NCBI GenBank assembly: GCA_964347045.1
Contig: CAYFXC010000009.1
Coordinates: 1 to 64,000, forward strand
Reading direction: 5' to 3'
DNA length: 64,000 bases
Origin: an uncultured archaeon
GTDB taxonomy: Archaea; Asgardarchaeota; Hermodarchaeia; Hermodarchaeales; Hermodarchaeaceae
Below, in pieces: positions 26,019-61,919 of the stretch. The notes beneath the pieces are model-generated. The model made no database searches, was not told the DNA's origin, and saw only the letters and a list, made by a program, of their open reading frames with translations. The position numbers and the translations under genes were made by a program. Within the stretch, counting starts at the first letter, position 1; every line of letters begins with the position of its first letter.

Positions 26019-27383
26019 GTGACCCAACATGACCTGATAATTGTTGGCGCTGGACCCGCTGGTGCCCATCTAGCAAAAGAAGCGGCACAGCTAGGACTGG
26101 ATGTGTTGCTCTTGGAACGTTTTCCTCGAGAACGTGTGGGTGACAAAGTTTGCGGTGAAGGCATCGCGCTTCATCATCTCAAAAATGCTGGTATTCCTTA
26201 CCCTAAAGGGAAGGAACTAGGTAACACTATCAATGGTATCGATATCTATCCTCCTAGCATGAAAAATTACATTACCATAAGTCAACGAATGGAAGGAGAA
26301 CCCTGTGATGGCTGGACAATCAATCGAATTTATTTTGGACAACGGCTCCTTGGGTACGCTGAAAAAGCAGGAGCTACGATTCAAGACCACGCGCATGTTT
26401 TAGAACCCATTTTTGAGAATGGAGCAGTCATCGGAGTAAAATACAAAGACACTATTTCAAACACTTTGAAGAAAGTTTTTGCCAAGGTTACTGTTGATGC
26501 AAGTGGAATGTCTGCAAGTCTTCGCCGAAAAATGAAAGATCCTCTGATTGAGCAGACTATTGCATTAAAAGATCAAGCGGTTTGTTATCGTGAAATTTTA
26601 GAACTTCATGAACCTTTTGAGCCAGCTGATCGATGCTGGATTATCATGGATGATCGCTTTAGCCCTGGAGGTTATACATGGATATTTCCACGTGGAAAAA
26701 ACATTGCTAATGTCGGCCTTGGTACACAAGGCGGTCAAGGTCATCGACCGAAGGAACTTTTCAAACAATTTCTAGCATCCACTCCCCTCTTCAAAGCTTC
26801 AAAGGTTATACATGGTGGAGGCGGTGCAGCTCCAATTCGAAGACCACTTTGGAGTTATGTTGCAGATGGAATTGTTTTTATTGGTGATAGTGGATGCCAT
26901 GTAAATCCGATTCATGGTGGTGGAATTGGATCAGCCATTGAAGCTGGACATGTAGTGGCTCCAATTATTAGACAAGCTATTGAAACCAATGACACGTCAA
27001 CGAGTGGGCTTTGGCAGTTCAATGTTGAGTATAATCAGAAACACTATGGACAAAAAATTGCTTCATTAGACTTAATGCGTCATCTTCTCCAGGAGGTTGG
27101 GAACGAGGAGTTTGATTTTGTTATCAATAATCGGATTCTTACTACGGATGATATGCTTAGAGCTAACGCAGGTGAAGGTATCCACATATCTGCTCTGGAT
27201 AAGGCAGGACGAATGATTCGTGGATTAAGGAAACTCGGACTTCTTCGGAGGATTCAAAATGTGTCAAGGGCAATGAGTGAAATGCTATCCCTTTATCGGA
27301 ATTTCCCTGAATCCTTAGATACTTTTGAGTCTTGGAAAAAACGAGTTTCAAAGCTCTATCATGATTTGGGGTATCAGCCCTAA
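26019..27383 (+). CDS. Geranylgeranyl reductase family (digeranylgeranylglycerophospholipid reductase)
   Basis: IVGAGPAG, KVCGEG, PGGYTWIFPRG, NVGLG, IGDSG..VNPIHGGGI. Confidence 0.9.
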   Translation: MTQHDLIIVGAGPAGAHLAKEAAQLGLDVLLLERFPRERVGDKVCGEGIALHHLKNAGIPYPKGKELGNTINGIDIYPPSMKNYITISQRMEGEPCDGWTINRIYFGQRLLGYAEKAGATIQDHAHVLEPIFENGAVIGVKYKDTISNTLKKVFAKVTVDASGMSASLRRKMKDPLIEQTIALKDQAVCYREILELHEPFEPADRCWIIMDDRFSPGGYTWIFPRGKNIANVGLGTQGGQGHRPKELFKQFLASTPLFKASKVIHGGGGAAPIRRPLWSYVADGIVFIGDSGCHVNPIHGGGIGSAIEAGHVVAPIIRQAIETNDTSTSGLWQFNVEYNQKHYGQKIASLDLMRHLLQEVGNEEFDFVINNRILTTDDMLRANAGEGIHISALDKAGRMIRGLRKLGLLRRIQNVSRAMSEMLSLYRNFPESLDTFESWKKRVSKLYHDLGYQP

Positions 27384-27487
27384 AGCCCCTGAACTCTTCA
27401 GAGTTATCCCTCGTTACGTTTTTTATTTCGCTCAGAGTAAGAATAATTAAAATCACATTCTTGAAGTAATAGGAATGTGAATGTCGA

Positions 27488-28393
27488 GTGAATGTCATGG
27501 AACTTCCTATAGTTATTGATGCACACGCTCGTCATGTTGCTAGAGTGATTTTTTCACCTGATAATACTGCTTTACTCTCCTCAGGTATGGATAACCTTGT
27601 CCAAGTATGGGCAGTAAAAGAGTGGACACAACAACACACATTTTTTGGTCATACAAATAGCGTAAATGCCATTGCTTTAACACCTTTAGGAGACTTTCTA
27701 GTGAGTGGATCAACTGATACGACGGTAAAAGTATGGAGTTATCAAACAGGGGATCTTGAATACACATTAAGTGGGCATAAAAAAACAGTATCAACGGTGG
27801 CGATCTCTCCATCAGGTGAATATATCGCTTCAGGATCTTATGACGGGCTTGTGAAAATATGGAATCTTGCATCTGGTGAAGAAATCCGCTCAATAACCAA
27901 TATTGGACGAAATATTGCATCAGTAGATTTTTCTCCGGACGGTAAATATTTAGTTGCTGGCGGTTTGGGCGATGACATCTACCTTTGGGCAACACCAACT
28001 GGCGAGCTTATCCAACAAATCAAAGGTCACGAAACAGCAGTAAATTCAGTCACCTTCTCACCTGACGGTAAATGGCTTGGTTCAATTGGATATGAAGAAA
28101 CCCTGAAAGTTTGGGCAACAAGATCCTGGGAACAAGTACGTTCAATTAACCTTGAATCACGGGCAAGCGATCTAAGCTTTACTTCAGATAGCAAAAAGAT
28201 TGTTGCCGCGATCGATTACGGAGTCCGAATATGGAACCTACGTACAGGTGAAATTGACAAACAGTTTGAATTACCCGTTAAAGGAGTCTATACTGTTGCC
28301 GTCTCACCTACAAGACGATGGCTTGCTGTGGGATCTGCTGATGGTAAAGTTAGAATCTGGGAAATTCGTAAACCATCAAAAAAATCCGAATAA
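27488..28393 (+). CDS. WD40-repeat beta-propeller protein (about 7 blades)
   Basis: Repeated GH..V..V..SP.G...SGS.D..VKIW units. Confidence 0.95.
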   Translation: MNVMELPIVIDAHARHVARVIFSPDNTALLSSGMDNLVQVWAVKEWTQQHTFFGHTNSVNAIALTPLGDFLVSGSTDTTVKVWSYQTGDLEYTLSGHKKTVSTVAISPSGEYIASGSYDGLVKIWNLASGEEIRSITNIGRNIASVDFSPDGKYLVAGGLGDDIYLWATPTGELIQQIKGHETAVNSVTFSPDGKWLGSIGYEETLKVWATRSWEQVRSINLESRASDLSFTSDSKKIVAAIDYGVRIWNLRTGEIDKQFELPVKGVYTVAVSPTRRWLAVGSADGKVRIWEIRKPSKKSE

Positions 28394-28395
28394 TA

Positions 28396-28404
28396 TTTTA
28401 TAAA
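28396..28404 (+). promoter_or_regulatory. Archaeal TATA box (TTTTATAAA) of the putative ncRNA
   Basis: Lies about 21-29 nt upstream of the first base of the terminal helix (28425) and is preceded by purine-rich GAATAA. Confidence 0.5.
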
Positions 28405-28424
28405 CTTGAAGAAGTTGAATTGAT

Positions 28425-28653
28425 GGAGTGCCTCACCATCCTTAAGTCACGACGGATCATCGGTACTCCCCCGGATGCTTCCCAGGCATCTGCTGCTGTT
28501 ACAAATCGGAAAAGGAGCGAGGGCGTCGGAGGTTAAACGGCGCCCTCCGCCAAGAGGCAAACGCTAAGAGTATTGCCTTATAGAATCCTTCGTAACAAGT
28601 AGCTAAGGGCAATGCCTGCTTTTTATAGTGCTTGTGTAAAGAAAGGCACATCC
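28425..28653 (+). ncRNA. Putative structured non-coding RNA (about 230 nt), family not recognised
   Basis: Terminal helix GGA-GTGCCT (28425-33) with AGGCAC-A-TCC (28644-53). Hairpins at 28472-92, 28519-47 and 28554-79. Enclosing helices 28492-502/28592-603 and 28512-16/28586-90. TATA box upstream and T-rich tract at 28662-70. Confidence 0.6.
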
Positions 28654-28673
28654 TAAACTCATTCTTTTTCCTG

Positions 28674-29882
28674 CTAATAGGCTGTTACGATATTGTTTTT
28701 GAGGGGTTTGACCAATCGCTGTAGAATTGTTACTCGTATGTCAGTCCAACTCATTGCAACAAGAAGTGAGAATCCCACGTAGGAAGCGCCAAACCATCGC
28801 CAAATCGCATAATCCATCCAATATAAAGCAAAATTGTTGATGTGCGAAGTGGCTGCAAATATGATGGGAACGAGCCAAAGCGTGATTGCAAGGCTCAGAA
28901 GTGGAATTGATATTGCTTGTCGCCTTCGAGCAATTCTGATTATCCACCAACTGATTGTCCCCCAAACCACAATGACTTGGAATAATAAAACAACATAGAA
29001 AAGGGGAAGGGGAAGAAATGGCGGAACTGGGTTTGTTGGGTAGTATCCATTAAATGTTACTGGTGCTAATACATTGTAAGCAAGGACTCCAAACCCAAAC
29101 CAAATGAAACCACTCAGATTACGAACAAATTCAGGTAGGTTTGCCGTCAGCATCATAGATGGATCTGGAATCGGCTGGGCAATGATAGTGTGTACCAGAT
29201 ACAGTCCGAAGGCTGTAATAAATATGCCTAAAATAATGCCAACTGAAAGATATCGACTTCGTAGGATGAAAAAAACTAGAATCGCAGGAAAGGCGAAAAT
29301 GAAAGTCTCTTTGATAAGAAATGCAATTGCTATGAATCCACCAGCCAACCAGGGATGATCCGTCCAAGCCCAATACACGGCGATAATTACGAATGGCATC
29401 GCAAATAAAGCAATTTGAAACAGTGGAATAACATTAAAGAAAAAGGCATATTGAGCGAAGGTAGCAGCTAATCCTGCCCAACCGGATCCAATTATTTGGT
29501 AAACTACCCAAAAGGTTAGTGTAAGATTTAGTGCTGCCACAACAACACACAGAAAACTAAGTGGGAAAACAAAGCCGGGTCCTGCCCAACCTGTTAGGAA
29601 AACTACTGGATAGAAAACCAATGGAGTACGATAGATGCGCAGGTCGCCAAGATCTCCAGTTACCATCGCTGCATGTCGCCATGCAGTGTAGAAGTCCTCT
29701 CCATGTAACATGTAATAAATAACTGTTTTGTGCATCGTATCATCGTCAAGAGCAAGCCGAGGAACAAAGTCAATTCCCCAAGAATGTGAAAGAAAAATCA
29801 CCCAAATTATGCTACAAACTGACAGGAAAGCGATGAACGCGGCAACCCCTTCTTTATGAAGGAGGTCTGAAATTGATGGCAC
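28674..29882 (-). CDS. Polytopic membrane protein, GT-C-fold glycosyltransferase-like
   Basis: About 10 TM helices; acidic DDD after TM1; YRTPL..YP; AFLIKETF. Confidence 0.55.
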   Translation of the reverse strand: MPSISDLLHKEGVAAFIAFLSVCSIIWVIFLSHSWGIDFVPRLALDDDTMHKTVIYYMLHGEDFYTAWRHAAMVTGDLGDLRIYRTPLVFYPVVFLTGWAGPGFVFPLSFLCVVVAALNLTLTFWVVYQIIGSGWAGLAATFAQYAFFFNVIPLFQIALFAMPFVIIAVYWAWTDHPWLAGGFIAIAFLIKETFIFAFPAILVFFILRSRYLSVGIILGIFITAFGLYLVHTIIAQPIPDPSMMLTANLPEFVRNLSGFIWFGFGVLAYNVLAPVTFNGYYPTNPVPPFLPLPLFYVVLLFQVIVVWGTISWWIIRIARRRQAISIPLLSLAITLWLVPIIFAATSHINNFALYWMDYAIWRWFGASYVGFSLLVAMSWTDIRVTILQRLVKPLKNNIVTAY

Positions 29883-29966
29883 CGAGATTTGGTCACCTAT
29901 TCATAGAGATATTATTCTATTCTCTTTGTTGTGCTCTATTCAAAAGACTTAGGCTCTATAACAGTT

Positions 29967-30404
29967 TCAAGTGTGAGCGCAATTTGAGCATTCTTCTGAG
30001 GTTTCCGCACCACAAATCGCACAGGAATCTCGTACTTGTTGGCAGATATCACAAACCTTCTGTGTTATCTGGTCATTGGCAAAGGCGCCAGTGCTGATTC
30101 TATTGGCTAATGTTTCAATAGCATCTTGAATATGTTGTCCCAAAACGACCGATGAACCCCGCTCTCCTTTCATGTAATGTGATATCGTTGCTTCTGTGGT
30201 TCCCAAAATTTTAGATACTTGGACTTGGGTCATTCCCTCTTTGACTAGAGCTCGGGCTAGCGATGATTTGATTGCTGGAAGCGCCTTCCAGACCACAGTT
30301 TCACAGGGGAATGCCATGTCTAAAAACTCCATTTCGTTTACGGGTCGTTTGTTAACATTGTTAAGTTTTGAGTCTTGCATGGAATTTAAGTCTTGGGTAC
30401 TCAC
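29967..30404 (-). CDS. Archaeal HTH transcriptional regulator with a Cys-rich tail
   Basis: PCE.....LPAIKSSLARALV..GMTQ.QVSKILGTTEATISHYMKGERG. Confidence 0.85.
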   Translation of the reverse strand: MSTQDLNSMQDSKLNNVNKRPVNEMEFLDMAFPCETVVWKALPAIKSSLARALVKEGMTQVQVSKILGTTEATISHYMKGERGSSVVLGQHIQDAIETLANRISTGAFANDQITQKVCDICQQVRDSCAICGAETSEECSNCAHT

Positions 30405-61675: not shown

Positions 61676-61740
61676 CTTTAAGTGTGCGGAATGTGCTTTA
61701 GCCTCTTGTTAGTTGAATACACTAACCTCTAATTAAATTC

Positions 61741-61755
61741 GAAAGGTTTATATTT
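61741..61755 (+). promoter_or_regulatory. BRE/TATA-like promoter for the ArsR-like regulator operon
   Basis: GAAAGG-TTTATAT in the AT-rich intergenic region upstream of 61920. Confidence 0.4.
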
Positions 61756-61919
61756 GTGAACGATAATATTCTAATTCAGAACGAAAAAATTCTATCGTTT
61801 AGAAAACGTCTCTAATCGTAATTTAACCGAGTGGAGTCGGATAAAATGAAAAAAATGGAAAACACTGAATGTTGCATCAAAGAAAAGATGTATGCTGAAA
61901 TTTATCGATATCGACGAAT

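Follow-up and report, generated by a model that had tools for sequence, protein, structure and literature searches.

What is encoded between the two convergent genes that leave a gap at 28394-28673 of this 64,000-nt stretch of Asgard archaeal DNA (hereafter the window)? The gap is bounded by the stop codons of a WD40 propeller gene on the plus strand and of an open reading frame (ORF) for a GT87-like membrane protein on the minus strand, and an earlier note, made from the letters alone, had proposed that it holds a structured non-coding RNA (ncRNA) with its own promoter and terminator. Its central claim, a conserved structured RNA locus of an Asgard lineage, is borne out by conservation and by covarying helices. 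Judged by comparison with homologous loci, the conservation pattern of 28420-28654 (the element; Table 1) is that of a folded RNA, and the sequence family to which it belongs lies outside Rfam and is found only in the class Thorarchaeia. We favor, with some reservation, the view that the element encodes a lineage-specific, trans-acting folded RNA that is probably bound by protein as a ribonucleoprotein (RNP) scaffold, and we think it likely that this RNA is made from the plus strand.

The element is present once in its own 2.58-Mb assembly. A DNA search recovered it from 11 of 14 genomes of the same genus and from one of four genomes of the sister genus, and a covariance model (R1) matched 14 of the 19 genomes that make up the entire family, order and class within the genome set used, with scores of 108-258 bits and one copy per genome. 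In each of the five genomes with no match, a contig end interrupts the syntenic locus or the locus is unassembled. The names carried by homologues of the neighboring proteins place the lineage in the Thorarchaeota/Promethearchaeota. Additional loci from metagenomes and metagenome-assembled genomes (MAGs) were retrieved via GT87 homologues (52-57% identical), and seven additional contigs carry the element, including one that duplicates the sister-genus genome G018, one weak instance and one partial instance. R1 scores 58-79 bits at L172, L173, L174 and L176, 103 bits at L185, and 22 bits at L188, which is highly divergent yet full length; the match at L187 is partial, interrupted by a contig end. 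Across 132 other Asgard genomes, neither R1 nor a rebuilt model (R2) found anything credible; matches of 14-22 bits and 38-68 nt in other Asgard classes were rejected, as they resemble the AT-rich 3´ block and lie mostly within ORFs of AT-rich genomes. Also rejected was a 21-bit "paralogue" in genome G001 (contig C37) that shares GCUUCCCAGGCAC and lies antisense to coding sequence that eight genomes conserve at 70-92%. A metagenome pattern scan with TTCCCANGCATNTGCTG gave more than 120 matches, mostly due to chance, with a true homologue at one of 80 loci. On one contig from JGI sample 3300042731 (P0028), a convergent methyltransferase gene lies just 26 nt beyond the GT87 homologue, too close for the RNA to fit between them; this lineage may lack the element or keep it elsewhere.

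Within the genus, copies of the element are 72-85% identical. Intergenic flanks cannot be aligned while the neighboring proteins are only 62-82% identical, so the element is clearly constrained. It is less constrained than the core RNPs, because it evolves faster than the signal recognition particle (SRP) RNA, which is 91-96% identical within the genus and 84-87% between both genera. A small ORF or protein-coding gene was rejected: no frame is conserved, with the longest open frames changing strand and frame among homologues, and indels in the element, such as the deletion of hairpin H4, are not multiples of three. Among GC-rich relatives, over-extended GT87 ORFs traverse the element in differing frames. 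At L172 (2501-3925), L174 (2501-4027) and L176 (2501-4000), gene calls for the GT87 ORF reach 70-110 aa further, across the RNA gene on the opposite strand, and these extensions look like gene-calling artefacts because their frames differ between genomes.

On the plus strand, 28420-28672 folds with -84.2 kcal/mol (z -2.9), a value equalled by 1 of 200 shuffles; the minus strand of the same interval gives z -0.4. All of the sequence strings quoted in the earlier note are present where it placed them, and the GC-rich island that it described between convergent genes exists, with a rise in GC content that is modest (0.505 vs 0.41-0.45 in the flanks). Across 19 sequences, 86% of cells are paired and 15 of 38 pairs have changed on both sides; none of 500 shuffles matched the observed values on any of five measures, and the covariation score is 0.224 vs at most 0.096 for slid partners, all on alignments that were themselves fitted to the covariance model. 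The result is similar for 16 sequences from which those bearing an insert (described below) were excluded.

Four helices, P1, P2, H2 and H3, stay paired across lineages despite quite different sequences. P1 becomes GGAGC/GCUCC in the metagenome sequence M172, GUGGGG/CCCCAC in M173 and GGGCGC/GCGCCC in M188, and the sequence of P2 differs in nearly every lineage, with its pairing always kept. GGUCAUCGG, in the same 5´ domain, is nearly invariant. A second 5´ hairpin, GAUGG/CCAUC, is a possible alternative to P1 (86% paired, two pairs changed on both sides); the covariation of another candidate helix, P1b (NCC/GGN), came from insert-derived sequences and was not relied on. In H2, both partners have changed in five of eight pairs: most of the genus has GUUACUAA/UUAGUAAC, with CUAA/UUAG, CUGG/CCAG and CCGG/CCGG as variants there, and the helix becomes GCGUAU/AUGCGC in M174, GCGUG/UACGU in M176 and UCGGC/GCCGA in M188. 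The top pair of H3 has changed from G-C to A-U in five sequences, and the whole helix is GAGAGAG/CUCUUUU in M188.

Against this map, the helices that the earlier note had drawn from one sequence fared unevenly. H3 (its hairpin 28519-47) is conserved with compensatory changes. The inner part of its long helix, GUUAC.../...GUAAC, is H2 and holds, with wholly different sequence in some lineages, while the outer part, GCUGCU/AGUAGC, is specific to the window genome. H4 (28554-79) is present in the window's genus and deleted in the sister genus (G018, G015) and in four divergent metagenome sequences (M172-M176). H1 (28472-92) is invariant within the genus and 79% paired overall; it is broken in G007, the sister genus and the divergent group (M172, M174, M176), and UUCC(C/U) is the sole universal part of this loop and linker. 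The AAGGA/UCCUU pairing is not kept, as relatives have UCGUU. The proposed switch, CAGGCAU/AUGCCUG, is genome-specific and not supported, because its 3´ partner lies in the variable H6 region. Pairing of the two ends amounts to 9 bp here, but just 65% across 16 sequences, and three compensatory changes that we had seen by eye in GCCU/AGGC failed as evidence of covariation, since the helix shares nucleotides with P1 as well as being poorly paired.

The strands between and beyond the helices behave differently. GGUCAUCGG, GGAAAAGGAG, CCAAGAGG, CUUUUUAU and GCUGGUG...CAC are unpaired and fixed or nearly so. In the first junction strand, GGAG is invariant in a 13-sequence, two-genus alignment; the sister genus has GGAA one position on, and the G006 clade has another sequence in place of this strand. 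CAAGAGG, in the second, is found in all full-length sequences except G008, which has one G-to-A change. It is fully (100%) compatible with pairing to CUUUUU, both sides of which are invariant, so that no covariation signal is possible; the pseudoknots AAGAGG/CUUUUU and UUCC/GGAG are likewise sequence-compatible with both sides invariant. H6 varies by lineage (GGC/GCC, GGC/GCU, GCG/CGC, GCGC/GCGC, GCG/UGC, and AAGGAU/AUCCUU in M188), with C(UUCG)G loops in G004 and G014 and many G-U pairs. The 3´ block that follows the U run is unique in the genome, and its potential GUGU/GCAC stem never covaries. Because the unpaired strands are fixed beside helices of varying sequence, a tertiary fold or recognition by a protein appears to be what holds these strands constant, although a bound protein is something that we purely infer.

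Table 1. Features at the locus in window coordinates, with the insert of three relatives in the coordinates of their own loci.
Feature	Position	Strand	Remarks
WD40 propeller gene	27488-28393	+	Pfam WD40; neighbor, not part of the element
TATA-like box TTTTATAAA	28396-28404	+	About 30 nt ahead of P1
Element	28420-28654	+ favored	Conserved, single-copy, non-coding, helix-rich
5´ domain	28419-28469	+	P1 around variable hairpin P2 and conserved asymmetric internal loop (UC / CAUC)
P1	28425-28429 with 28465-28469	+	GGAGU with ACUCC; 94% paired; two pairs changed on both sides
H1 hairpin	28473-28491	+	GAUGC/GCAUC, loop UUCCCAG
Conserved block UUCCCAGGCAUCUGCUGC	28479-28496	+	Conserved at the sequence level, not as a helix
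Core junction domain	28498-28596	+	Closed by H2, GUUACAAA (28498-28505) with UUCGUAAC (28589-28596)
Junction strand UCGGAAAAGGAGC	28506-28518	+	Purine-rich
H3 hairpin GAGGGCGUCG/CGGCGCCCUC	28519-28547	+	91% paired
Junction strand CGCCAAGAG(G)	28548-28556	+	CAAGAGG nearly invariant
H4 hairpin	28555-28578	+	AGGCAA/UUGCCU; optional
H6	28608-28616	+	Short GC hairpin (3-6 bp) immediately before the U run
UUUUUAUA	28620-28627	+	U5 invariant in all sequences
3´ block GUGCUUGUGUAA..AAAGGCACAUC	28628-28653	+	Conserved as strongly as the core; possible hairpin GUGU/GCAC
Second U-rich tract UUCUUUUUC	28662-28670	+	T-rich stretch 10-25 nt after CACAUC in most relatives
GT87-like membrane protein gene	28674-29882	-	402 aa; convergent; only constant neighbor
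Insert, G010	L005:1256-1496
Insert, G005	L013:1313-1498
Insert, metagenome relative	L097:~2410-2560	-

The element could have been a divergent member of a known RNA class. Rfam 15 covariance-model searches, the check that the earlier note had proposed, gave no match in the whole window at the gathering score, none inside the element at E<=10 and none at two homologous loci at E<=5, so the prediction that no Rfam family applies has held up. That note had also set aside SRP RNA, RNase P RNA, tRNA and box C/D small RNA (sRNA), and we agree: the SRP RNA (RF01857; C1:223253-223592, 119 bits) and RNase P RNA (RF00373; C1:6379-6756, 177 bits) of this genome are encoded on another contig and the element scores against neither model, an ARAGORN search of 27000-30000 for tRNA and transfer-messenger RNA returned no gene, and conserved C/D boxes are missing. 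The model for type T RNase P RNA (RF02357) gave no match, but its control also matched nowhere. AUGAUGG occurs at the 5´ end in only part of the genus (others have GUGUUGG, AUGGUGG or AAGUGUGG), the 3´ end has no CUGA, and the internal CUGAUG is CGGAUG here and CGCGUAC in M172. An H/ACA sRNA was rejected as well: UAACA follows H2 in every sequence of the two-genus alignment but is gone in M172, M176 and M188, and H2 closes a two- or three-way junction where an H/ACA RNA would have a pocket below a single upper stem. A conserved G.A tandem, as in a kink-turn, was sought and not found. In the window genome as a whole (G000; 2.58-Mb, 89%-complete assembly), ARAGORN reports 18 tRNA genes only, which suggests that many tRNAs carry introns or are unassembled.

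The element resembles archaeal SRP RNA and RNase P RNA in size class and in being a single-copy structured RNA gene; it differs from SRP RNA in its separate locus and its faster evolution. It is also like the orphan, lineage-specific structured ncRNA genes found by comparative genomics, which are single-copy, free-standing and of 200-nt scale, with many helices, and like them it has covarying helices and invariant unpaired strands, has no Rfam family and is confined to one archaeal class. A riboswitch or other cis-regulatory leader was rejected, as the next gene along the plus strand is convergent at every locus and there is thus no downstream gene on that strand to control. Covarying helices, fixed unpaired strands, a single copy, class-wide retention and nothing downstream to regulate together point to a folded RNA that acts in trans.

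Such an RNA would start near 28420-28430 and be about 205 nt long if it ends at the invariant U5 (about 28625), or about 245 nt if it continues to the second U tract (about 28670). Read 5´ to 3´, it would comprise an irregular P1/P2 hairpin domain with a conserved asymmetric loop, a linker with the near-invariant UUCC(C/U), and a junction domain closed by H2 that holds H3, the optional H4 and the near-invariant purine-rich strands GGAAAAGGAG and CCAAGAGG; a short GC hairpin, UUUUUAUA and a conserved 3´ block of 30 nt would complete it.

Several features argue for the plus strand. H6 with U5 occurs in every lineage on that strand only, with many G-U pairs that exist only there; the loops and junctions are rich in A and G; G-U pairs occur in the helices of M188, M174 and M176, two of them in the H3 of M188; the minimum free energy (MFE) is lower on the plus strand in 13 of 16 sequences; and M172, M174 and M176 have no stop codon between GT87 and the element. 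Other results are mixed or weigh against a plus-strand RNA of the kind that we favor. The mean shuffle z is -1.5 on the plus strand and -1.4 on the minus strand, RNAalifold shows no preference for the plus strand and gives a lower energy on the minus strand with the MAFFT alignment, and changes of the G-U type and of the A-C type are about equally frequent in well-aligned helices (about 10 each). In the sister genus, H2 and H3 carry four A.C mismatches on the plus strand, which are G-U pairs on the minus strand, and the MFE of the core is -27 kcal/mol on the minus strand vs -15 kcal/mol on the plus strand. GT87 is always co-oriented with the minus strand. In addition, the position of the upstream TATA box is not conserved in relatives, an invariant internal T5 is unusual inside a stable RNA of this genome, and the element evolves faster than SRP RNA.

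We consider it unlikely, though worth serious attention, that the functional RNA is instead made from the minus strand, either as a long structured 3´ untranslated region of the GT87-like mRNA or as an RNA processed from it. The constant adjacency of GT87 in the same relative orientation, where the other flank varies, would be expected under this explanation, and the sister-genus mismatches and core energies and the RNAalifold result fit it. The H6 hairpin and U5, found on the plus strand only, do not; in addition, the junctions and loops would become rich in U and C, and the G-U pairs in the helices of M188, M174 and M176 would break. In M172, M174 and M176, the GT87 frame has no stop codon ahead of the element, so ribosomes would enter it. 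A minus-strand promoter at TATAAAAAG would not rescue the explanation, as the transcript start would fall after the H2 strand in M174 and M176.

If the RNA is made from the plus strand, the next question is where it begins and ends. In this genome, an SSTTTTTAA-like promoter consensus lies 36-45 nt upstream of the mature 5´ ends of tRNAs and SRP RNA. The box TTTTATAAA, which the earlier note had taken for a promoter, fits this consensus and spacing here, but its position is not conserved, and relatives have only loosely placed AT-rich stretches. The U-rich tract that the same note had placed at the 3´ end is found in most relatives, 10-25 nt beyond CACAUC, and is a candidate for the final terminator.

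The U5 upstream of this tract is harder to read. Stable RNAs of this genome avoid internal T5 and have T4-T6 at their ends, and archaeal terminators are U4-U7 tracts, of which a single one is incomplete and two work better (PMC8716108); for these reasons H6 with U5 looks like the terminator of an RNA of about 205 nt. A variable GC hairpin directly before U5 in every lineage recalls both bacterial intrinsic terminators and archaeal U-tract terminators acting with aCPSF1 (PMC8716108). Unlike hairpin-plus-U-run terminators, however, the element has a stem of just 3-6 bp, its U5AU is invariant rather than variable in length, and a conserved 30-nt block and then a second U tract follow. UUUUUAUA may terminate the transcript, offer a protein a single-stranded site or pair in a pseudoknot. 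The 3´ block could be the 3´ hairpin of the RNA, in which case U5 would be an internal single-stranded site, or a plus-strand promoter with a CA start about 30 nt downstream.

In the sister genus (G018, locus L038, and G015, locus L039), about 200 nt lie between the element and the GT87 stop codon. The first 70-95 nt beyond CACAAC are conserved between the two genomes (GGAAAAGG.UC.AGAAU...UUAGAGCC, with a hairpin) and end in T5 in G018. This stretch may extend the RNA at its 3´ end or represent a separate small transcript.

It is rather improbable that the locus comprises two units, with the RNA ending at H6 and U5, and with TTTTTATA and the 3´ block forming the promoter (TATA box, AT-rich -10 region and CA initiator about 30 nt downstream) of a short transcript antisense to the end of GT87. 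The locus as a whole would then be a convergent terminator/antisense module tuning GT87. The sequence GCTTTTTATA does fit the local plus-strand promoter consensus, with CACA at the expected start distance, and the avoidance of internal T5 in stable RNAs, their termination at T4-T6, the U4-U7 tracts of archaeal terminators (PMC8716108) and the 70-95 nt conserved up to T5 in the sister genus are all compatible with two transcripts. In the window's genus, however, the second transcript would run into the T-rich tract after about 20 nt, the stretch between TATA box and start (GCUKGUGUA) is conserved far beyond what is usual for promoters, and the block is unique in the genome. Incomplete termination at one U tract, with two working better (PMC8716108), fits read-through to the second tract.

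We doubt that the RNA is a base-pairing regulatory sRNA whose unpaired, C-rich UUCCC (within UUCCCAGGCAUCUGCUGC in the window's genus) would pair with G-rich sites, such as the ribosome-binding sites of mRNAs. UUCC(C/U) is the sole part of the linker present in all lineages and forms a hairpin loop in the window's genus, and conservation of sequence without pairing is typical of seed regions. The genome, however, has no extended antisense site for it (at most two mismatches over 18 nt), a search of the genome for antisense targets of six conserved blocks found nothing above chance, most invariant positions lie elsewhere (junction strands, U5 and 3´ block), and a multi-domain fold of 200 nt exceeds the needs of a seed carrier.

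A further possibility concerns the partner of the trans-acting RNA rather than its existence. An invariant, single-stranded U5 close to the 3´ end, with a short hairpin before it and a possible 3´ hairpin after it, recalls the Sm-class RNAs (the U1, U2, U4 and U5 small nuclear RNAs (snRNAs) and yeast telomerase RNA), whose Sm site has the consensus RAU(4-6)GR. UUUUUAUA would then be the binding site of an Sm-like archaeal protein (SmAP/LSm) ring, making this an Sm-class RNP RNA in an Asgard archaeon. We regard this as a long shot: U5 is flanked by C...AUA, the 3´ hairpin does not covary, and there is no similarity to an Rfam snRNA. Archaeal SmAPs do bind stretches of low GC content in ncRNAs (bioRxiv 10.1101/2025.07.28.667248).

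That the element is non-functional as RNA, being a relic of a mobile element such as a miniature inverted-repeat transposable element (MITE) or else a DNA element conserved, for example, for protein binding, is hardly credible, for although a TnpB omega-RNA remnant does lie within the gene in three relatives, the element itself is single-copy and syntenic, its helices covary, and the multi-copy part is the insert alone, which is missing from the window genome. A MITE or dispersed repeat, the alternative that the earlier note had named, was rejected on the same grounds of one copy per genome in a constant syntenic place.

The insert deserves description in its own right. It measures 185-240 nt and lies at the same site in the three relatives, between P1 and the following UGAUGC. 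Its core of 130-165 nt is repetitive: four relatives have 6-10 or more copies each, and the window genome has none. Two copies overlap the 3´ end of OrfB_IS605/TnpB ORFs of 409 and 421 aa (L020, L025), so the insert is a TnpB omega-RNA or right-end remnant. The likeness to the IS605-family right end concerns the insert only, not the element, and the copies inside the RNA gene differ from a TnpB omega-RNA locus in having no TnpB and in running antisense to the RNA. The two halves into which the gene is split remain conserved, and the end of the insert makes a new hairpin that abuts the 3´ half of the RNA, with a TATA-like box. In solo copies of the repeat, a GGTTTTTATAC-like box precedes the omega-RNA start by about 30 nt; these copies lie in front of unrelated genes, including those for a Nop5-like protein (L021) and an inositol monophosphatase (L022).

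Among the neighboring genes, only the GT87-like gene is constant: it is adjacent to the element at every locus examined. PF09594 is found in homologues of its 402-aa product, one of which bears the name glycosyltransferase 87 family protein. The gene order in the window's genus is geranylgeranyl reductase (GGR), WD40, RNA, GT87 (convergent) and helix-turn-helix. In the sister genus and in M185 and M188, there is no WD40 gene and the RNA directly follows the GGR gene, and at L172-L176 the gene on the upstream side is oppositely oriented. The suggestion that the RNA forms an RNP with the adjacent WD40 propeller therefore fails, as a check of linkage finds this gene upstream in one genus only. 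The 301-aa WD40 gene ends in a Lys-Lys stretch with an A5-A7 run (T5-T7 on the minus strand) about 40 nt before the RNA. Elsewhere in the window, the AT-rich gap at 61676-61919 was considered as the site of another Thorarchaeial RNA and rejected as unstructured (z +0.5 and -0.7).

The element defines a new, well-supported RNA family, for which about 20 sequences, a helix map and a covariance model are now in place. For annotation, it implies that GT87 ORFs of GC-rich relatives have been extended artefactually at their C-termini, and the TnpB-remnant insertions provide a natural experiment on which parts of the RNA must remain joined. That unpaired strands stay fixed next to helices free to change points to a specific partner or fold. 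No known organisms are more closely related to eukaryotes than the Asgard archaea, whose ncRNA repertoire is almost uncharted. If the Sm interpretation were true, the RNA would be a prokaryotic counterpart of the snRNP plan (structured body, Sm site and terminal hairpin) in the lineage closest to eukaryotes. With an Sm-like ring or some other eukaryote-like RNA-binding protein as its partner, the family would bear on the origin of eukaryotic RNPs; otherwise, it would be one more lineage-specific small RNA.

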